The notes under the pieces were generated by a model. That model ran no database searches, was not told where the DNA came from, and saw nothing but the letters and a program-made list of their open reading frames with translations. The position numbers and the translations under genes are program-made. From Bacillales bacterium UBA743 (GTDB lineage: Bacteria > Bacillota_I > Bacilli_A > RFN20 > CAG-826): DNA of 64,000 nucleotides. This document shows positions 35,046 to 44,498 of the stretch, in pieces (the first letter of the stretch is position 1; each line of letters begins with the position of its first letter). Location: positions 210,650 to 274,649 of the forward strand of contig DBKT01000011.1 in the NCBI GenBank assembly GCA_002297365.1, read 5' to 3'.

Positions 35046-36386
35046 TTAATCCTTCATCTCTTCGGGATGATGCAAAAGATGCACATCGAGGAAGGCCGAA
35101 AGAATCACCCCCGTGCAAGCAATCCCGCTCATCACAAAGAAAACCACGAAAGTGAAATCGGTGAAGTAAGGATAGCAAAGCTGCAGGAGGGAGTTGACCA
35201 ACTGAAAGATAAGCGGGGCAACAAAGACCGCTTTTCTTCTTAATTTTGGCCCTAATATATGGTTAAGCATGCCTAGATTGCTTGTAACGTATAAGCCACT
35301 TGCCATCCCCTTCAAAGAATGAATCAAAATGATGCCCGTTACCAAAAGTGTGGAAACGTGCTCCGGGCCAACAAAGAAATAAGAGAAAAGGCCGAAAGAA
35401 AAAGTTTCGATGCAAATTAGCCCTAAGGCGAGGCTTAAGGAGAAACGAATCTTTTTCCCGATTCCAAAATGAGTGTTGATGAACACAAAAAGAAATTCAA
35501 AAAGATAGCTCACGCCCAAATAAATGCCCCACGTCAGAGGATTAAAAGAATTCAATGTTTCCGTAAGGCTTTCATAAGAAGACCACAAAGAGGAAGTCAA
35601 GGAATCGCTTGCCCATATAAGAGGAATCCACAAAGAGGCCAAAAAGAGATAAAAGACATAGTTCTTATTCTGAAACAAGAGCCTCGTTGGAACATGCTCA
35701 TCGCTATCGGAATGATACAAAGAACTTGGGAATGGCTTAAAAATAAAAGTGAGGCCAAAGAGCAAAATAAGCAAAGGGGATGAAACAAGAAACAGAAACA
35801 AATAGCCTTTATATCCAATAAAGTAGGATTCTGCGATATAACCCGCTAAAGGAGAAGCAATCGCCGGCATCAAGACCCCATAAAGGCAAATATGCCCGTA
35901 TCGGCTTCCCTCTGCAACATTAATGTCCGCTGCGCAGGAAGCATGAAAAGAAAGAAAAGCCCAATGAAGTCCCATCAAGATAGAAGAGAAGGCGACAAAC
36001 AAAGCGAATAACGCATAGTATTCCCCTTTTCTAACAATCTCCCCTGTCGGATTTAAGCCGGTTGGCAGAAAAATACCGAGCAAAGAAAAGACAAGGATGG
36101 AAACAAAACTTCCGCAAATCAAGCCTCTCATGACTTTAAGATTCGTTTTTTGATGTGAGACGAAAAAAGAACAGATGAAAATGCCAATCGCTGCGCCAAA
36201 AGGAGGCAAAAACAAACTCAAGGAAGACATTTTAGAGGTCCACCCCAATTGTTTTCTGCACTCGTTTAAAAAAATAGTGAGAAACGAAATCACCATGCCT
36301 TCAAAAAAAGAAGCGGCGGCAAAAAAGATTTGGGCTTTAGCCGTCTCAGGTTTCTGTTTTCGATCCAAATAAAAGGTAAAACGCAT
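35046..36386 (-). CDS. Major facilitator superfamily-like transporter (12 predicted TM)
   Basis: 446 aa, two 6-TM halves. No ATPase partner. Confidence 0.5.
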   Translation of the reverse strand: MRFTFYLDRKQKPETAKAQIFFAAASFFEGMVISFLTIFLNECRKQLGWTSKMSSLSLFLPPFGAAIGIFICSFFVSHQKTNLKVMRGLICGSFVSILVFSLLGIFLPTGLNPTGEIVRKGEYYALFALFVAFSSILMGLHWAFLSFHASCAADINVAEGSRYGHICLYGVLMPAIASPLAGYIAESYFIGYKGYLFLFLVSSPLLILLFGLTFIFKPFPSSLYHSDSDEHVPTRLLFQNKNYVFYLFLASLWIPLIWASDSLTSSLWSSYESLTETLNSFNPLTWGIYLGVSYLFEFLFVFINTHFGIGKKIRFSLSLALGLICIETFSFGLFSYFFVGPEHVSTLLVTGIILIHSLKGMASGLYVTSNLGMLNHILGPKLRRKAVFVAPLIFQLVNSLLQLCYPYFTDFTFVVFFVMSGIACTGVILSAFLDVHLLHHPEEMKD

Positions 36387-36405
36387 GAGAATATCTTACT
36401 TATCT

Positions 36406-36891
36406 TTAAGAAACGGGCGTTTCGTTCTTCTTTAAGAAACAAAAAGTCCTCATAGTTAAGATATGCAATGTCAAATAGCCAGCCATAAGCAAAAGAATGA
36501 CAAATACATAAACGAGATTTATGATTCCCTCCCCTTCGGTTAAAGAAAGGATAGACCCCACAATAAAGTAAACACCCAGAGACAGAACAACAAGGCAGAT
36601 TAAGATTTCAAAAACAAGCACGCTTATTCTTTTGGCTTTTGTTTTTTCTTTCTTGGAAAATCCAAGTGCCAAACCAAAGGCATCCAAAAGAAGAGCAAGA
36701 CAAATCGGAATCAAAAAATACAAGGAGAGCAAAGTCATTTGCGTTGACGTGGCATCTCCTCCCCCTTGAGCAGCATCTCCTAAGCCGCCAATCAAAGCAA
36801 AAATCAAATGGATAAACAATCCTAGAAGCAGCAATAAAATATCGCTTAAGATATGAAACACCAACAGAATGGTTTTTTGTGTTCTGCTCAT
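36406..36891 (-). CDS. Small integral membrane protein (4 TM), hypothetical
   Basis: 161-aa hydrophobic ORF. Confidence 0.35.
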   Translation of the reverse strand: MSRTQKTILLVFHILSDILLLLLGLFIHLIFALIGGLGDAAQGGGDATSTQMTLLSLYFLIPICLALLLDAFGLALGFSKKEKTKAKRISVLVFEILICLVVLSLGVYFIVGSILSLTEGEGIINLVYVFVILLLMAGYLTLHILTMRTFCFLKKNETPVS

Positions 36892-37673: not shown

Positions 37674-37862
37674 AATCGCTCCCAATTCCTTTCTGTATTC
37701 TAAATGAATGCGTCCAACTATAGAAAGCTCTATTGATTATATAAATATAAAGGTAAGCATTCGAAAGAGGGAGGCAATTAAAAAACCTGGCGAATATCCA
37801 TGCTTGTTTTGAAAAAAAGGACGGACCCCTGTATGAAAAAGCCTTCCTAGGAATATTTTTCT

Positions 37863-39365
37863 TTAATTAAGAATTTCATCCAAATACGTTTTGAAAGCGG
37901 ATGGTATGGAATAAAGTCTTTCCAATTCCTCTTTTGTAGCCAATAAGAAACCACAATTCCTTGGATAATCCTTTAATTCCACACGGAAGCCGCTCATTTT
38001 CCATAACAAATGGGTAAAGACGTGCTTCCCTTTCTTGTCTTTATGGATTGCACAAACGGAAAAGTCATTCTCCTCTAAATAATTCTTTGCTTCTGATAGA
38101 TTAAAATGCTCATCCACGTTATAGAATTCGTATAAAGAGGCAAGCAATCCCCTATTCGGCCTTTTGCGAATTAGATATTTCCCTTGATAAGAAAGAAGAA
38201 AGACAGTTTTATGAATCTCCTTCTTTGGGCTTTTTTTCTTAGAACGTGGGTATTTCTCTTGGATCTTCTCTCGGTGCGATTGGCAAAACTGCTTAAGGGG
38301 GCATTCTTCGCATTTAGGCGAAGCGTTTGGCAAGCACACCAGTTCCCCCAAATCCATCAGGGCCTGGTTGAAGGAAGAGGAGTCCTTTCCGAGCAAGGAA
38401 AGGAAAGATTTGTTGCATCTCTCTTTTATTTCCTTCGATTTAGCATCATAGGGGGAGCAATGTAAACGGGCATAGATACGAATCAAATTTCCATCTACCG
38501 CAATATAAGGCTGTTTGTAAACAATAGAAAGGATTGCTTTCGCGGTATAATCGCCAATCCCAGGGACGTTTATTAATTCTTGATAGGTATTGCAAGAAAG
38601 GTTGTTCTCGAGAATATATCTTGCCCCTTTTTGAAGATTTCTTGCACGGGAATAATAACCCAACCCCTGCCAAAGCTTCATAACCGTGTCTTCTTTAGAA
38701 GAAGCGAGATCTTTCAAAGTTGGCAAGACTTTTAAGAATCTCTCATAGTATCTCTTCACTGCTTCAACACGGGTTTGTTGCAGCATGATTTCGCTTAAAT
38801 AAACATGATAAAAAGAAGAATCCTCACGCCAGGGAAGTTTTCTTCCCTTTTCTTGATACCAATTTAAAAGAAGCTCAGAAAAAGAAGCGACTTTCTCATA
38901 AGCAAGACGGGTGCTTCCGTCTTCAACAACGATTTTCCCGCAATACGCAAAGCCCTCTTCTTCAATTCGTTTTCTCATTGGGTGGTTGTCTTCATGCGTG
39001 TCGATTCTGATATGTCTGTTTTGAAGGTAGGCATAATGAAAACATGCCGTAGCATACCCCCCGCCATGTTTATTTACAGCAATTCTATGGATAGTGAAAT
39101 AAGGGGAATCGTCCATCCATTTTCCTTCTATTGTTTCGTAAGTTGGATCAGAGGTCTCTAACAAAGTGAAAACCGCTTGAATCTCACCTTCATCTATCAA
39201 GATGTGGGAGATTCCTTTTTTAACGTCATCTCCGACACGATTCTTTAACGTCTCAAGGTTCTTCCATTGGTCTGGGTTCCCTTCTTCTTTCATAAAGGAA
39301 GCGGCGTTTTCGTAAATTTTAAAAACGGCAGGAAGATCGGAAATCGTTGTTTTTCGAAAATGCAT
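37863..39365 (-). CDS. mutY: Fusion protein: N-terminal GNAT-family N-acetyltransferase (about 150 aa) plus A/G-specific adenine DNA glycosylase MutY (HhH-GPD, 4Fe-4S, NUDIX-like C-terminal domain)
   Basis: Continuous 500-aa ORF with no in-frame stop at the junction. GNAT core (IHRIAVNKHGGGYATACFHYA). MutY motifs LPWRED..YHVYLSEIMLQQTRV, the HhH (PGIGDYTAKAI), a catalytic-Asp region, and the Cys cluster CLPNASPKCEECPLKQFC. Confidence 0.75.
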   Translation of the reverse strand: MHFRKTTISDLPAVFKIYENAASFMKEEGNPDQWKNLETLKNRVGDDVKKGISHILIDEGEIQAVFTLLETSDPTYETIEGKWMDDSPYFTIHRIAVNKHGGGYATACFHYAYLQNRHIRIDTHEDNHPMRKRIEEEGFAYCGKIVVEDGSTRLAYEKVASFSELLLNWYQEKGRKLPWREDSSFYHVYLSEIMLQQTRVEAVKRYYERFLKVLPTLKDLASSKEDTVMKLWQGLGYYSRARNLQKGARYILENNLSCNTYQELINVPGIGDYTAKAILSIVYKQPYIAVDGNLIRIYARLHCSPYDAKSKEIKERCNKSFLSLLGKDSSSFNQALMDLGELVCLPNASPKCEECPLKQFCQSHREKIQEKYPRSKKKSPKKEIHKTVFLLSYQGKYLIRKRPNRGLLASLYEFYNVDEHFNLSEAKNYLEENDFSVCAIHKDKKGKHVFTHLLWKMSGFRVELKDYPRNCGFLLATKEELERLYSIPSAFKTYLDEILN

Positions 39366-39371
39366 ATTGTC

Positions 39372-39698
39372 TTACTTATCCAGTTCAGTGTATTTTTTCG
39401 CCGTGCCTTTTGCTTTAGAAACTGGGTATTTTTTCTCATTTTTCTCCATTTTGGAGTTAACGATTTCATCTTCATCGAGTCCTAATTTATCCAAAAGATC
39501 GCGAGAATAGATAATCACATCCGCTAGTTCTTCTTTAACGTGCTCTAAATCATACTCATCAGAGGACCATTGGAAACATTCCAAGAGCTCTGCTGCTTCG
39601 ATGGATATGCTCTTAGCTAAATTCTCTGGCGAGTGAAACTTAGACCAGTCTCTATCCTGAATGAATTTATGGATTCTATCGATTGTTTCTTTTTTCAT
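39372..39698 (-). CDS. MazG-like nucleotide pyrophosphohydrolase (small all-alpha NTP-PPase)
   Basis: 108 aa. Motif EAAELLE...W...EELADVIIY characteristic of MazG/YpjD-type NTP pyrophosphatases. Its stop lies 6 bp upstream of the mutY-fusion start. Confidence 0.7.
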   Translation of the reverse strand: MKKETIDRIHKFIQDRDWSKFHSPENLAKSISIEAAELLECFQWSSDEYDLEHVKEELADVIIYSRDLLDKLGLDEDEIVNSKMEKNEKKYPVSKAKGTAKKYTELDK

Positions 39699-39945
39699 AT
39701 ATTGAATTCGTTTTCTCTTTCTTTTTCTTCCTTCATTAATGATAAAAGATTTTGCTGAATTAATTTATATTTATTCTTTTTAGAGGTTATAGAGAGATGG
39801 AAGAATTTAATCATCCATTTAAGTAATGAATGGGGTGCCTAATTTAAGGCTACCGGTGCCATAAGAAAAGCAGGAGGCAATTGAACCTCCTGCTTTCTTT
39901 GAGCTGTTGCCAAGGGTTTTAGAAGGCTATTTGCCCGCCTTCTAT

Positions 39946-42345
39946 TTAATGGAAAACGCCATCTCGATTAATTTCAACGCCATCCAATCTTTGAATGAGT
40001 AGACCGCTGCCTAACGTGTATTTAGGGGTGGCGTTAGGAGAGAAATGGAAGAAAGCAATGTCATTATCGTAAATGACTCTTAGCTTTCCCGGAATCTCAT
40101 AAACGGTTTGCTTGCTCGCATCAACATAACGGATCGGATCGGTATAGCCGTTAGCTATATAATCATCATCGCGATAGCCAACATCAATAAGGCCCGATTC
40201 GACTTTCGTAAATCCTTTAGCGAGGAAGCCTTCATCCAAAACGCTTGTAGGAGTCGTGCTTCCAGAGCAATAAAGTCCAATTCCAATCAATGGATCATCA
40301 TAATCTATCTTTCCTTCCGCGTTTAGATCAGGAACGCCAGTGCCAGAAGCGTAACGTGGCTCCGCATACCATTGCCCGACGAAGCGCTTGTCATAATAAT
40401 AAGGAATCAAAGACGCGTATTCTTCTCCGATATAATTCACCAAATCCTGCCACTCATCCGGAGAATCATCTTCATAGCAAGTTAATTCCATTGGCCCAAT
40501 CTCGTTGACATTGATATCAGAAGGAAGCGAAACATCGCCGTATTCAAAAGTAAGGTACTCATATGGATAAAGGCTATAATTGACCTGATAGGTGATGCTG
40601 GTTAGCAGGCCTTGGGAATTCGTTTCCATAACAACATTCGTCGTAACGACGTTGTCTGAAATCCAAAGGGTGTTTTTCGTTTCGGTGACAAGCTCTCTGA
40701 AGGAAAGAGTTCCATCAGTATTCTTTTTGACTGTAAAAGGATCAATGAGAGCGGGGAAATGGTTGGTGATTTTATCGTTTTCCACAACATCGTCGCTTTG
40801 CACCAATTTATTGCTGTTTTTAATCCAACGGAATGGGACGATTGTTCCATCTTCTTTGGTAGTATAGCCGTTGATGCTCTTCTCCCAATCGCTATTGCCC
40901 TTATACTCTTCCTGCACCAAATATGTCGTTCCATCAAAAATGTATGTGGTTTTTCTTGTTGGATTCTCTTTGTCGTTCACTTTCGTGATGCGGAAAGAAT
41001 CTTCTCCCTTGAAAATGCTCATCGCTCTTGTTATTTCTCTTGATGGAGTGTCTTTATAAGAAGTAGGAAGAGTTATCCCATCATATTTGTGGAAGGTTGT
41101 TATCGCTGTATAGGTGGGATTTTCAATATCGCCCATTGATTTCATCTGAATGGAGGATACTTTGTTGTCCGTTAAATTCAAGACGATATCTTCAAAAGAG
41201 CAATTCTGATCGTTTATGGAAACGTGGGCAAAACTTTGATAAACCACGTTTGGATCAAGCGCGAAATATTTATAAGTTCCGTCTGACATCCGGCGGAAAT
41301 CTTTATAATCAAGCTGGCAAGGCAGTTTGTATTGCGAGTAGAAATATCTCGTTTCTGTTTGGATTTCTTTGTTTTGGCCATCTAACCCGTAAGAGATCAT
41401 TCGCTCATCGGAATCGCGTTTTTTAAGATATCCGATATATTCTTGTTTTGTTCCATCAGGGTCATCAATGGTATTCAAATAGATTGTGCTGTCGTTGCAT
41501 TTGAAATGAACGGTAGCAGCATGCTTTTTGCCAACGAGCAAAGAGGCAAGATAAATCTCCGTGGTAGAGGAATTATTCACGGCAAAAACATCTCCTGCTT
41601 GTTCTTCTGTTAAAGAAGGCATGCTATTTTCCCAAGAAAAGGAAGCACGGTAAGACTCCAACTCCTCATCTTTTGTGTTGTTGATATGATTGAATGAGCC
41701 TAGTACCAAAGAAGTGTTCGACGCATCAAAAAGCTCATAATTCAAGGTCTTGTTTCCATTATCAAACCAGAAAGAAACCTGCCCGATGTCCGAGGTGCTA
41801 TATAAGTTCATGAAAGCGGAAAGAACACCGGAATCATCCGTATAATAAGCACCATTTTTGCTTTGGAAAGAGCTCGTGCTTAAAGAGTCAGAGATTTCAG
41901 CTAAAAAATTGAAATAATCTATCGTGAGCTCATATCGGTTGCCATATTGATCCATGTAATAACCCATGGAATCCACATACGGTTTTCCTTTTTTATCGAA
42001 AGAAAGCTTGTAAGCAACGTTCTTTGATTCATCCTTGTGATAAGGAAGATTTATATAACCTACCTTATCTTTCACGCGTTTGTAATAATTCTTGGTAAAA
42101 AGGATTTCCTTTTTGTTTGTTTCCAAAGAAAAATTAATGTTCCTCTTCATCAGCAACAATGTATCGATGACCCCATCAACAGAATCTTCTGCGACATAGT
42201 CATTTTGATTTGGGTCAACAGATGAAGTTTCTTCAGAGCTCATTTGAGAGGAATTTTCGGAAGAAGAATCCGAAGAGTTCCTACAAGCCGAAAGACTTGC
42301 GATTAAGCAAGGGATCAGTAAGGACAAAATACGTGTTTTTTTCAT
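39946..42345 (-). CDS. Large surface lipoprotein (799 aa) with Ser-rich linker; function unknown
   Basis: Lipobox LSAC after the signal peptide MKKTRILSLLIPCLIAS. Poly-Ser/Glu low-complexity linker followed by a beta-rich body. Confidence 0.55.
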   Translation of the reverse strand: MKKTRILSLLIPCLIASLSACRNSSDSSSENSSQMSSEETSSVDPNQNDYVAEDSVDGVIDTLLLMKRNINFSLETNKKEILFTKNYYKRVKDKVGYINLPYHKDESKNVAYKLSFDKKGKPYVDSMGYYMDQYGNRYELTIDYFNFLAEISDSLSTSSFQSKNGAYYTDDSGVLSAFMNLYSTSDIGQVSFWFDNGNKTLNYELFDASNTSLVLGSFNHINNTKDEELESYRASFSWENSMPSLTEEQAGDVFAVNNSSTTEIYLASLLVGKKHAATVHFKCNDSTIYLNTIDDPDGTKQEYIGYLKKRDSDERMISYGLDGQNKEIQTETRYFYSQYKLPCQLDYKDFRRMSDGTYKYFALDPNVVYQSFAHVSINDQNCSFEDIVLNLTDNKVSSIQMKSMGDIENPTYTAITTFHKYDGITLPTSYKDTPSREITRAMSIFKGEDSFRITKVNDKENPTRKTTYIFDGTTYLVQEEYKGNSDWEKSINGYTTKEDGTIVPFRWIKNSNKLVQSDDVVENDKITNHFPALIDPFTVKKNTDGTLSFRELVTETKNTLWISDNVVTTNVVMETNSQGLLTSITYQVNYSLYPYEYLTFEYGDVSLPSDINVNEIGPMELTCYEDDSPDEWQDLVNYIGEEYASLIPYYYDKRFVGQWYAEPRYASGTGVPDLNAEGKIDYDDPLIGIGLYCSGSTTPTSVLDEGFLAKGFTKVESGLIDVGYRDDDYIANGYTDPIRYVDASKQTVYEIPGKLRVIYDNDIAFFHFSPNATPKYTLGSGLLIQRLDGVEINRDGVFH

Positions 42346-42602: not shown

Positions 42603-44498
42603 ATGAAAAACGCAAACAAATTACTATGTTTAGTCTTGAGCGCATTCGCTTTGGCTGGATGCGCCGCAACCCAAAGCTCATCTTCTGACTCTGCGGAACC
42701 AGTCGTTGGTCCGCAAGGCCCGAAAGGAGATACCGGAGAACAGGGGCCAAAAGGAGACGCAGGGAAGGATGGAAACACTCTCTTAACTGGCACCGGTGCC
42801 CCATCGAATGAGGATGGAAAGGACGGAGACAGTTACATCGATACCACAACCTTCGACTTTTACGTCAAAGACAATGGAGTCTGGTCGAAAAAAGGAAACA
42901 TCAAAGGAGAAGACGGGCAAGATGGCTTTGATGGCAAGGACGGAAATACCGGCAAAGACGGCAAAGACGGCTCTTCCTTCCTTTCTGGAACAGTAGATCC
43001 GACCGCTGACCTCGGAAGCGATGGCGACATGTATTTAAACACCGAAACCAACGACGTTTTCAAGAAAGCCGATGGCGAATGGACCAAATTAGGAAACATC
43101 AAAGGCGACAAGGGAGACAAAGGAGAAGATGCGATACCAACATACGCAAATACCTTCTTACCTTCCCTTGGGGGATATCTCTATTCCGATAAGGGCTCTT
43201 ATGAGGCCGGAGAAAAGATTCAGCTAAAAGCAAAAGTCGAAGCAGGATACGCTTTAGAGAGCGTTGAAGTCGGATACAATGGCAACACCTATATTTATGA
43301 TAAAGCAACAGGGCTTGATGGCTTGCTAACCGACGGTCTTTCAGCAAAAGAAGGAGGCTTCGTTTTTAAACCGATCTTCACCCAAGAGAAAGCGAATGCA
43401 TATACCATTGCGGATACAGCTGCTTTAGCAACCGTCGGAGAAGAAGGGGATGGCACGTATAGCCTAACGGCCGCAACATATGGCACCCAAACAAATGGCG
43501 TGACCTTAACCTCCAAAGGCAATTTCGTAAAATTAGTTGGCAAGGTTGGAGAAGACAACACACCTGCAACCACTTTATATCTCAGCGGAAAATCATCCTT
43601 TAATGCCAATTATTTCTCCCTTGAGAACGTGAATGTCGTTCTTGCCGATGATTATGCTGATTCCACCTCTATTTTGGAATTCAACAATACCTTTGCCGAA
43701 TTCAAAAACTCCACAATCACCATTGGAAAAACAGTCAATGCGGCTTTGAATTTCAAAACAGGGAACTTCGCCATCGACGGCGTTAAGATTGAATCCGGAA
43801 AAGACACATCAGACGCGACCTTCTTAACCACCGCTGTCCTTTTTGGCGAAACCGCAGATACTGCCTTAGCTCGCATAAGCGTAACGAACTTAACCGTGAA
43901 CAACGTGAAATTCACTACTTATGGCGACTATAAAGGATCCGTATTCAAATCTTTCTATGACGCGCCATATTTTAGCTTCACGATTAAAAACTCTACCTTT
44001 GGTACAAGTGAAACCAAAATCGGTGAAGTCTGGAGCCATTTCCGTAAGCAAGATCACATCTCTAATAACGATGGACGTGGGGAGTTCACCGAAGAAAACT
44101 ACAAAAAGATGATGAAAACAGCTCTCTTAGAAATTGAAGGCACTACTTTCTATAGTGCTTTGGAGAATCATGAAGACGATACATATAACCCAGCATTGAT
44201 TTCCTTCCGCCCAATGGAAAACGATAGCGATGACGATTATGTGAGGAGGGACGTTTTTGCGGATATTCTTATCTCCGTTAAAACTTCCACATTCAATGGA
44301 ACGGCTATCACTTCTAACAATGTCCATTATGGCAAAGTCGGCGATGTACCTCTTACGACCATTTATTGGTATTCTGACGAATGGTATGGCGCGGATAAGC
44401 CCTATTACTACAATTTCGTCTATCCTTATGGGCAAGTGGATGGAACAGACGCTGATTTAACAAACGCCAGCTCCAATAGTTCATACTATCCGTTTTAA
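42603..44498 (+). CDS. Collagen-like repeat surface lipoprotein. The preferred start is the ATG at 42603 after SD AGGAGG.
   Basis: Lipobox LAGC. G-X-Y triplets (GPQGPKGDTGEQGPKGDAGKDGN; GEDGQDGFDGKDGNTGKDGKDGS). Recurring module G(K/S)DGD(S/M)Y(I/L)(D/N)T(T/E)T...W(S/T)K(K/L)GNIKG about three times. Large C-terminal beta-rich domain. Confidence 0.6.
   Translation: MKNANKLLCLVLSAFALAGCAATQSSSSDSAEPVVGPQGPKGDTGEQGPKGDAGKDGNTLLTGTGAPSNEDGKDGDSYIDTTTFDFYVKDNGVWSKKGNIKGEDGQDGFDGKDGNTGKDGKDGSSFLSGTVDPTADLGSDGDMYLNTETNDVFKKADGEWTKLGNIKGDKGDKGEDAIPTYANTFLPSLGGYLYSDKGSYEAGEKIQLKAKVEAGYALESVEVGYNGNTYIYDKATGLDGLLTDGLSAKEGGFVFKPIFTQEKANAYTIADTAALATVGEEGDGTYSLTAATYGTQTNGVTLTSKGNFVKLVGKVGEDNTPATTLYLSGKSSFNANYFSLENVNVVLADDYADSTSILEFNNTFAEFKNSTITIGKTVNAALNFKTGNFAIDGVKIESGKDTSDATFLTTAVLFGETADTALARISVTNLTVNNVKFTTYGDYKGSVFKSFYDAPYFSFTIKNSTFGTSETKIGEVWSHFRKQDHISNNDGRGEFTEENYKKMMKTALLEIEGTTFYSALENHEDDTYNPALISFRPMENDSDDDYVRRDVFADILISVKTSTFNGTAITSNNVHYGKVGDVPLTTIYWYSDEWYGADKPYYYNFVYPYGQVDGTDADLTNASSNSSYYPF

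Follow-up and report, generated by a model that had tools for sequence, protein, structure and literature searches.

A GNAT acetyltransferase-MutY fusion maintained in a clade of uncultured gut Bacilli

Few DNA glycosylases are understood as well as MutY, which in bacteria is regarded as a two-domain enzyme that stands alone. In eukaryotes, acetylation of base excision repair (BER) glycosylases such as OGG1 by p300 can modulate their turnover, the acetyltransferases concerned acting in trans. In this study, we examined a gene from Bacillales bacterium UBA743 that joins an acetyltransferase domain to MutY within one polypeptide. It occupies positions 37863 to 39365 on the reverse strand of a 64,000-nucleotide stretch (hereafter the window) of contig DBKT01000011.1 (assembly GCA_002297365.1, positions 210,650 to 274,649), and encodes 500 amino acids (aa): an N-terminal GNAT domain followed without interruption by a complete MutY. 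An original prediction, made from the sequence of the window, had drawn attention to this open reading frame (ORF) and called the architecture unusual, MutY being normally a stand-alone protein, a view our searches bear out. The motifs that define MutY, including the wedging Gln48 and Tyr88 and the transition-state Tyr126, have been described (PMC11078426). The GNAT domain is of the 2PC1 type, for which we found only one mention in the literature, as a gut-enriched GNAT family (PMC2880560). Literature searches for fusions of GNAT or other acetyltransferases with MutY found nothing relevant, and the architecture is apparently undescribed, its members being present in the databases yet not recognised as such.

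The single in-frame ORF that had been predicted is found well beyond the window. In a search covering 5.8 billion proteins, we identified about 33 clusters of proteins of roughly 500 aa that align at 100% query coverage and 42-100% identity; some of these comprise dozens to hundreds of members, one of them 266 member sequences. Behind the fusions in the same search come stand-alone MutYs of about 345 aa, which are 45-55% identical over the C-terminal two thirds. A 6-sequence alignment scan placed the fusion in six species-representative genomes, all of them metagenome-assembled genomes (MAGs), such as "uncultured Mollicutes bacterium UMGS237", GCA_034180405.1 and GCA_963659405.1; two of the six bear obviously wrong species labels. 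Aligned with one another, 24 fusions show a conserved, linker-less junction ('RLAYEK-xx-SFS-xx-LLxWY..LPWR'), the last GNAT strand, RLAYEK, being followed after about three residues by the first MutY helix, FSxxLLxWY..RxLPWR. Two doubts raised beforehand, that a missed stop or frameshift lay at the junction and that the fusion was a recent one, were not upheld. The junction is exactly the same in L022, a separate assembly of this species that is 99.7% identical over 10.5 kb, and four relatives at about 80% identity (L003, L011, L016 and L023) carry 20-24 substitutions within the 138-nt junction without an indel or a stop. Since proteins with as little as 42% identity have it too, the fusion is old rather than recent. 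An internal start yielding a separate MutY was ruled out: there is no in-frame ATG, GTG or TTG between residues 131 and 193, the first after residue 130 being M194, which lies past the catalytic Glu192, and MutY can therefore be made only as a fusion. The fusion is genuine and evolutionarily maintained in a clade of uncultured gut Bacilli, represented by MAGs labelled 'Mollicutes'. Two public MAG records with a low-GC, Bacilli-type GNAT-MutY locus are filed under other names, L014 (CAVCCX010000044.1) as 'Bacteroides uniformis' and L016 (CAVGNR010000006.1) as 'Escherichia coli'; these bins are evidently mislabelled or chimeric.

Residues 161-500 constitute the canonical MutY that had been predicted, with the HhH-GPD domain, the Fe-S cysteines, the NUDIX-like domain for recognition of 8-oxoguanine (8-oxoG) and every defining motif. 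Pfam models cover residues 191-496, namely HhH-GPD (PF00730, 8.4e-23; 81.2 bits against a cutoff of 26.2), HHH, the EndoIII Fe-S motif (PF10576, E=0.0016, slightly under its cutoff) and NUDIX_4 (PF14815, 1.7e-18; 66.9 bits against 35), while the NCBIfam model for mutY, TIGR01084, scores 276.9 bits over residues 162-425 and narrowly misses its cutoff of 286.5. We checked the motifs both against the published list (PMC11078426) and by direct alignment to MutY of Geobacillus stearothermophilus (Gs). The catalytic glutamate E192, in SEIMLQQT, corresponds to Gs E43, D291-G-N293, in VDGNL, to Gs D144 and N146, the wedge residues Q197 and Y237/Y238 to Gs Q48 and Y88, and the transition-state tyrosine Y273 to Gs Y126. 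All of these are invariant in the 24 fusions, as are the 4Fe-4S ligands C344, C352, C355 and C361, and F450 and H452 of the 8-oxoG loop; in MutY the serine of this loop is often replaced by threonine, which is an accepted variant (PMC11078426). The AlphaFold2 (AF2) model of the whole protein has a mean per-residue confidence (pLDDT) of 95.7 and a predicted TM-score (pTM) of 0.89, and Foldseek superimposes it on DNA-bound Gs MutY (6u7t_A) with E=1e-29, a target-normalised TM-score (TMt) of 0.89 and a root-mean-square deviation of 2.3 over 341 columns. The same model predicts that GNAT and MutY are rigidly juxtaposed. With its motifs and fold intact, the MutY half very probably excises adenine opposite 8-oxoG.

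The complete GNAT fold that had been assigned to the N-terminus is likewise supported for residues 1-159, although it is sub-threshold in Pfam. Over residues 1-160 no Pfam GNAT model is significant, the best being Acetyltransf_3 with 14.4 bits against 25.4 (E=0.064), and this probably explains why database copies such as P0007 are annotated only as "NUDIX domain-containing protein". The same residues match solved GNAT structures, 2pc1 at E=2e-16 and 3h4q at 3e-6. Modelled by AF2 on its own, the domain reaches a pLDDT of 93.4, and the GNAT region lies at 93-96 across models. DSSP assigns the canonical GNAT topology b1-a1-a2-b2-b3-b4-a3-b5-a4-b6-b7 in both the whole-protein and the domain-only models (strands E, helices H: E2-5, H8-27, H37-50, E53-58, E61-69, E90-97, H104-115, E118-123, H128-136, E140-146, E152-159). 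The best GNAT hit in Foldseek is again 2pc1, at a TM-score (TM) of 0.81-0.87 (query-normalised, TMq, 0.87 with the GNAT-only query), followed by the uncharacterised Firmicute GNATs 2fia, 2oh1 and 3h4q and by SbzI; in the GNAT-only search, SbzI, RimI/J-like proteins, SpeG and PaiA lie at TM 0.6-0.7. That search gave 364 PDB matches (E<=1e-3), and every one of the 50 listed is a GNAT-type acyltransferase. Its close hits are all uncharacterised structural-genomics GNATs, and it gave no lead to an acceptor; there are weak hints of a RimJ/L-like protein N-acetyltransferase. Elsewhere in the family the Pfam model PF00583 does recognise the domain: the stand-alone homologues P0144 and P0124 pass its cutoff of 20.7 with 28.5 and 27.3 bits, and the fusion P0030 carries a precomputed PF00583 hit.

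When the 24 fusions were compared with 28 stand-alone homologues, 31 positions were at least 80% conserved in both sets, including Q33-W34, Y76, G81, W83, Y89, H93, G103, R120-I-D-T-H124, N127, M130, C142-G143, R153 and A155. The window GNAT retains all 31, and with them the 2pc1-like signature (QW, Y76..I79.G81.W83, Y89.T.HRIA, G103, RIDTH..N..M, CG and R.A). Between the window and three of the relatives at about 80% identity, the GNAT half has a dN/dS of 0.11-0.14 and the MutY half one of 0.11-0.13, which indicates that both halves are under equal purifying selection. Motif A, H100-G-G-G103-Y-A105, is non-canonical when set against Q/R-x-x-G-x-G/A. In fused and stand-alone members alike, G103 is invariant and A or G is common at +2, while the Q/R position varies; because the departure is the norm in the stand-alone family too, it need not point to decay of the fused domain. 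Being under selection and carrying the full signature, the GNAT most probably keeps the activity of its family in the window lineage, and we consider it fairly likely that this half would transfer acetyl groups from acetyl-CoA to the acceptor that its stand-alone relatives use.

The domain has not been kept intact throughout the clade. In the fusions P0031 and P0037 the GNAT signature is lost (RIDTH..N reads RIKVNRTD and RIEIQSSD, respectively), and the N-terminus of P0091 (488 aa) is shorter, looks by eye like a decayed GNAT and has no Pfam hit; in all three the domain seems to be in decay though still attached to MutY. Furthermore, nine stand-alone MutYs nest in the fusion clade in a crude neighbour-joining tree of MutY, built without bootstrap support. 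One of these, P0036 (L019), is a clean stand-alone mutY with no GNAT and with its own terminator and promoter, and its synteny, PPDK-mutY-12TM_1-ABC, is that of the fusion loci L004 and L005. The sequences indicate that in the nested stand-alone MutYs the GNAT was either lost or never gained. As it is degenerate in some fusions and absent from the nested proteins, MutY does without the GNAT in some lineages.

Separate adjacent GNAT and mutY genes, the arrangement that the original prediction had set against a fusion, do exist in one relative. At L017:3475-5086 (logan:ERR11636029_8608), a separate 190-aa GNAT gene lies directly 5' of a stand-alone mutY (P0040) on the same strand, and its stop codon overlaps the mutY start (ATGAATGA), making the two translationally coupled. 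P0040 is 51-52% identical to the window MutY. The L017 GNAT has Pfam matches to Acetyltransf_7/1, 2fia as its best PDB match and a canonical QGKGVG motif A, and hhalign aligns it to the window GNAT over the first 58 columns only (probability 84%), which marks a different subfamily, from a neighbouring structural group. For this reason L017 serves as an analogy and model for the origin of the fusion and not as its ancestor, and the fusion in the window stands. On this model the fusion would have arisen once, most simply when mutY and a GNAT gene upstream, already coupled in translation, lost the stop and the intergenic signal that separated them; a one-base change in an L017-like arrangement would create it.

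To place the GNAT half in context, its family at large is informative. An exhaustive HMMER search yielded 3,274 cluster representatives at E<=1e-3 and 1,786 clusters at 50% identity at E<=1e-10, most of them 160-175 aa long, and neither Pfam nor NCBIfam has a model specific to this 2pc1-like family. Of the 150 top representatives, 41 have further domains: another GNAT (a second GNAT model is matched in up to 12 of them), NUDIX (four NUDIX and one NUDIX_4) or one of many unrelated domains seen in single cases, including EPSP synthase, IMPase, PMSR and regulators. Individual fusions of a 2pc1-like GNAT comprise one with a MutT-like NUDIX (P0194, TIGR00586 84.7 bits), two with other NUDIX domains (P0217 and P0267) and one with the O6-methylguanine-DNA methyltransferase Ogt (P0223). 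Our neighbourhood survey took in 80 metagenomic loci (42 clusters); the 61 ORFs scanned came from about 38 de-replicated stand-alone loci. Beside these 38 stand-alone members we found no enrichment of NUDIX, MutY or Ogt, and the commonest neighbour was peptide deformylase (4 of 61 ORFs), a weak hint at a role in acetylation of protein N-termini. Candidate deformylase genes, judged by size and spacing, lie 1-20 bp downstream of the GNAT at L028:528-941, L029:628-1041, L079:5548-5940 and L089:5525-5962. None of the stand-alone members at L007 and L008 (both beside miaA), L009 and L010 is next to mutY; members looked at one by one stood beside miaA, in the L009 string or on their own. In this LexA-NUDIX-GNAT string (L009:3842-5501), the stand-alone GNAT and the NUDIX gene before it share a 4-bp overlap, directly downstream of lexA. 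Because fusion partners are diverse and neighbours are not enriched, a damage-related theme of the family is only a weak lead.

The genes on either side of the fusion (Table 1) are those that had been predicted, a MazG-like gene 6 bp upstream and a HAD nucleotidase downstream, whose start lies 177 bp from the fusion stop. The upstream product matches PF12643 (MazG-like) with 70.8 bits against a cutoff of 27 (1.1e-19), and in the PDB the pyrophosphatase 4qgp (6.7e-21) and dCTP pyrophosphatase 1/RS21-C6 (6sqw, 1.7e-17); its metal motif, EAAELLE ... EELAD (EXXE...EXXD), comprises E34-A-A-E37 and E67-L-A-D70. The downstream product just misses the cutoff of TIGR02254 (153.3 bits against 159.9; 6.6e-45) and is above the Pfam cutoffs for HAD_2 (5.9e-18) and Hydrolase, with D11-x-D13-x-T15 as HAD motif I. 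The terminator of the gene further upstream folds at -22.7 kcal/mol (z = -5.5; none of 200 shuffles was equally stable) and forms the 5' boundary of the transcription unit of the MazG-like gene and the fusion; a simple terminator scan did not list this hairpin. Given this strong terminator and the 6-bp gap, co-transcription of the MazG-like gene with GNAT-MutY is likely, and so, judging from the layout, is translational coupling; a spacing of 6-8 bp also occurs in L003, L011, L016, L022 and L023. Between the fusion stop and the promoter-like site of the HAD gene, RNA folding detected no stable terminator (z = 0.16), and read-through into the HAD gene is therefore possible. The number of promoter-like sites found is not above shuffle expectation. 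Rfam and tRNA scans of the whole window found nothing.

Table 1. Positions within the window of the fusion gene, its domains and key residues, and the adjacent genes and signals
Feature	Position	Strand	Basis
GNAT-MutY fusion gene, 500 aa + stop codon	37863..39365	-	Pfam, NCBIfam, PDB, Foldseek, junction comparison
N-terminal GNAT domain, residues 1-159, 2pc1-like family	38889..39365	-	2pc1 match, AF2, Foldseek, dN/dS
R120-I-D-T-H124, part of the 2pc1-like signature	38994..39008	-	shared with 28 stand-alone homologues
MutY catalytic HhH-GPD / 4Fe-4S domain, residues ~161-375	38241..38885	-	PF00730, PF10576, Gs MutY alignment
E192	38790..38792	-	Gs MutY alignment, invariant in 24 fusions
D291 and N293	38487..38495	-	Gs MutY alignment, invariant in 24 fusions
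Cys344/352/355/361, Fe-S ligands	38283..38336	-	invariant in 24 fusions
MutY C-terminal NUDIX-like 8-oxoG-recognition domain, residues 387-500	37866..38207	-	PF14815
H448-V-F450-T451-H452 loop	38010..38024	-	aligns to the Gs MutY H-x-FSH motif
MazG-like (DCTPP1/RS21-C6-type) all-alpha nucleoside triphosphate (NTP) pyrophosphatase, 108 aa	39372..39698	-	PF12643, PDB matches, EXXE...EXXD
6-bp spacer, MazG-like stop codon to fusion ATG	39366..39371	-	sequence
YjjG/YfnB-like HAD-IA (noncanonical pyrimidine) nucleotidase, 235 aa	36978..37685	-	TIGR02254, HAD_2
Intrinsic terminator of upstream 799-aa gene	39862..39893	-	8-9 bp GC stem + T-tract
Promoter-like -35/-10 pair 5' of HAD gene	37717..37745	-	weak consensus match, 9/12

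How far these neighbours accompany the fusion depends on the distance compared. The MazG-like gene adjoins it in the window, in the same-species assembly L022 and in all four relatives at about 80% identity. The HAD gene adjoins it in the window, L022, L003 and L011, lies about 4 kb away in L016 and is not adjacent in L023. At 47-58% identity, the flanks fetched for nine fusion loci (L001, L002, L004-L006 and L012-L015) contain neither; where gene calls were available, L001, L004 and L005 have PPDK upstream and a YjjI/radical-SAM pair downstream, and L006 has other neighbours. Found together only in the clade at about 80% identity and at none of the nine distant loci, the trio is best read as genus-level synteny and not as a conserved companion of the fusion. 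The nucleotide-handling locus of the original prediction thus holds in part: the families are coherent and L022, L003 and L011 show the same order as the window, but both neighbours are missing at the nine more distant loci.

Several further ORFs of the window were noted. The 799-aa ORF upstream of the terminator (39946..42345, reverse strand) has a lipoprotein-type signal (..LSAC) and a Ser-rich linker, with no Pfam hit. On the forward strand, 42604..44498 encodes a lipoprotein-like product with a signal peptide ending in ..LAGC and collagen-like Gly-X-Y repeats (GPQGPKGDTGEQGPKGDAGKDG...), which accounts for a local rise in GC at 42.6-42.9 kb. On the 3' side of the HAD gene (35046..36891, reverse strand) lie two membrane proteins, one of 161 aa without a Pfam hit and one of 446 aa for which a weak match to Bax1-I is the only one. 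The synteny of this pair is kept in L003 and L011, to which the 446-aa protein is 93% and the 161-aa protein 61-63% identical, and the two therefore evolve at very unequal rates.

Taken together, we favour with good confidence the explanation that the gene encodes a genuine, maintained two-enzyme fusion, a complete MutY plus a 2pc1-family GNAT, in uncultured gut Bacilli. Its MutY half would remove adenine opposite 8-oxoG and its GNAT half would still use acetyl-CoA, acting on the acceptor of the stand-alone relatives; the GNAT would be absent from some nested lineages, whether lost or never gained, and degenerated in others. The fusion would probably be co-transcribed with a DCTPP1-like NTP pyrophosphatase beside a YjjG-like nucleotidase, a setting that is thematically coherent and lineage-specific. 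That an assembly or sequencing error wrongly joined adjacent GNAT and mutY genes is extremely improbable: the separate, overlapping genes of L017 prove such an arrangement possible, but the open frame recurs in L022 and, with its 20-24 substitutions and without indel or stop, in the four relatives, the architecture extends through some 33 clusters down to 42% identity, and a separate MutY would lack a start codon before M194. A more substantial challenge is that only MutY is active and that the GNAT is a catalytically dead appendage, be it a structural, dimerisation or ligand-sensing module or one simply not yet purged. Several of our own observations weigh against the reading we favour and in part towards this one: the sub-threshold Pfam score, the replaced Q/R of motif A, the fully degenerate signature of P0031 and P0037 and the N-terminus of P0091 with no Pfam hit, the absence of the domain from nested stand-alone MutYs with the same synteny, exemplified by the clean P0036, and the rigid, docked arrangement suggested by the pTM; in addition, the tree in which those proteins nest lacks bootstrap support, and the L017 GNAT is of another subfamily. 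Nevertheless, the window lineage keeps 31 of the 31 shared positions, H93, G103, R120-I-D-T-H124, N127 and C142-G143 among them, dN/dS of the GNAT half equals that of the MutY half, and the non-canonical motif A is also the norm among stand-alone members, so that we consider a dead GNAT unlikely in this lineage.

A maintained two-enzyme fusion leaves room for functional coupling between its halves, whereby acetylation by the GNAT of MutY itself, of a partner in repair or of a substrate related to the lesion would tune product release or turnover, or tie acetyl-CoA status to 8-oxoguanine (GO) repair. This would parallel the acetylation of BER glycosylases in eukaryotes. In its favour, a linker-less fusion has been kept over deep divergence with an inter-domain geometry that the model fixes confidently, mutY in L017 is translationally coupled to another, different GNAT, a linkage independent of the fusion, members of the same GNAT family are fused to the MutT-like NUDIX, to the other NUDIX domains and to Ogt, and one stand-alone member sits in the LexA-NUDIX-GNAT string. 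We nevertheless think it rather unlikely, as the fusion partners are very diverse, the 38 de-replicated stand-alone members show peptide deformylase and not NUDIX, MutY or Ogt as their top neighbour, those examined are not beside mutY, and some MutY lineages have an absent or degenerate GNAT. Otherwise the GNAT would simply be co-expressed or co-localised with MutY through a fusion tolerated by selection. The most specific form of this idea, that 2pc1-like GNATs handle nucleic-acid damage and that the fused one acetylates MutY (e.g., at DNA-contacting lysines), a partner or a lesion-related amine and thereby controls glycosylase turnover, is more of a long shot. If it were true, the fusion would represent acetylation-regulated BER in a bacterial, in-cis form, and the recurrence of GNATs with MutY (in the fusion clade and the L017 pair), MutT-like NUDIX, Ogt and the LexA-NUDIX string would be a genuine signal. 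Coupling at the level of the locus, with the MazG-like gene, GNAT-MutY and the HAD gene forming a dedicated, co-regulated unit for oxidised or non-canonical nucleotides, seems possible but doubtful. The families would form a coherent route around MutY, from NTP to nucleoside monophosphate (NMP) by the DCTPP1-like enzyme and from NMP to nucleoside by the YjjG-like one, and the 6-bp spacer, the lack of a stable terminator before the HAD gene and the order kept in four loci fit with it. Yet the HAD gene has a promoter-like site of its own, misses TIGR02254 by a small margin, lies about 4 kb off in L016 and is not adjacent in L023, both neighbours are missing from the nine fusion loci at 47-58% identity, and conservation at about 80% identity is what plain synteny would lead one to expect.

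A clade-wide, selected and linker-less fusion constitutes a "Rosetta stone" hint that acetyl-CoA chemistry may link to GO repair in some gut Firmicutes, and it offers a first contextual handle on a large gut-enriched GNAT family of more than 1,700 clusters. With the GNAT half below threshold, the architecture is invisible to Pfam-based domain searches. Should the halves be functionally independent, the case would still illustrate cleanly how two genes fuse and a domain is afterwards lost or decays, here in uncultured gut Bacilli for which there are only MAGs. For BER specialists it is a curiosity; for work on this orphan gut GNAT family it is a useful handle.

Compared with known systems, the fusion most resembles Gs MutY (6u7t / 1rrq) in its larger part, sharing the HhH-GPD/4Fe-4S plus NUDIX-like architecture and all motifs at 34-35% identity and a TM of 0.89; it differs in having threonine in place of serine in the 8-oxoG loop and in its 160-aa N-terminal GNAT, with which MutY can be made only as a fusion. 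That GNAT finds its closest counterpart in Streptococcus agalactiae NP_688560, the structural-genomics protein 2pc1, by the TMq of 0.87, the match at E=2e-16 and the shared signature, although members of the family are mostly stand-alone proteins of about 165 aa and the one described here forms a single polypeptide with MutY. The L017 gene pair has the same order, with the GNAT gene immediately upstream of mutY on the same strand and an overlapping stop and start, but produces two polypeptides, and its GNAT is 2fia-like with the QGKGVG motif A. Eukaryotic MUTYH (TM 0.74-0.79) is also a MutY-type enzyme with an N-terminal extension, which in its case is not a GNAT. Finally, clusterless MutYX (8uuc) likewise illustrates that MutY tolerates architectural variation; whereas MutYX has lost its Fe-S cluster, the protein described here retains a canonical MutY core to which a domain has been added.

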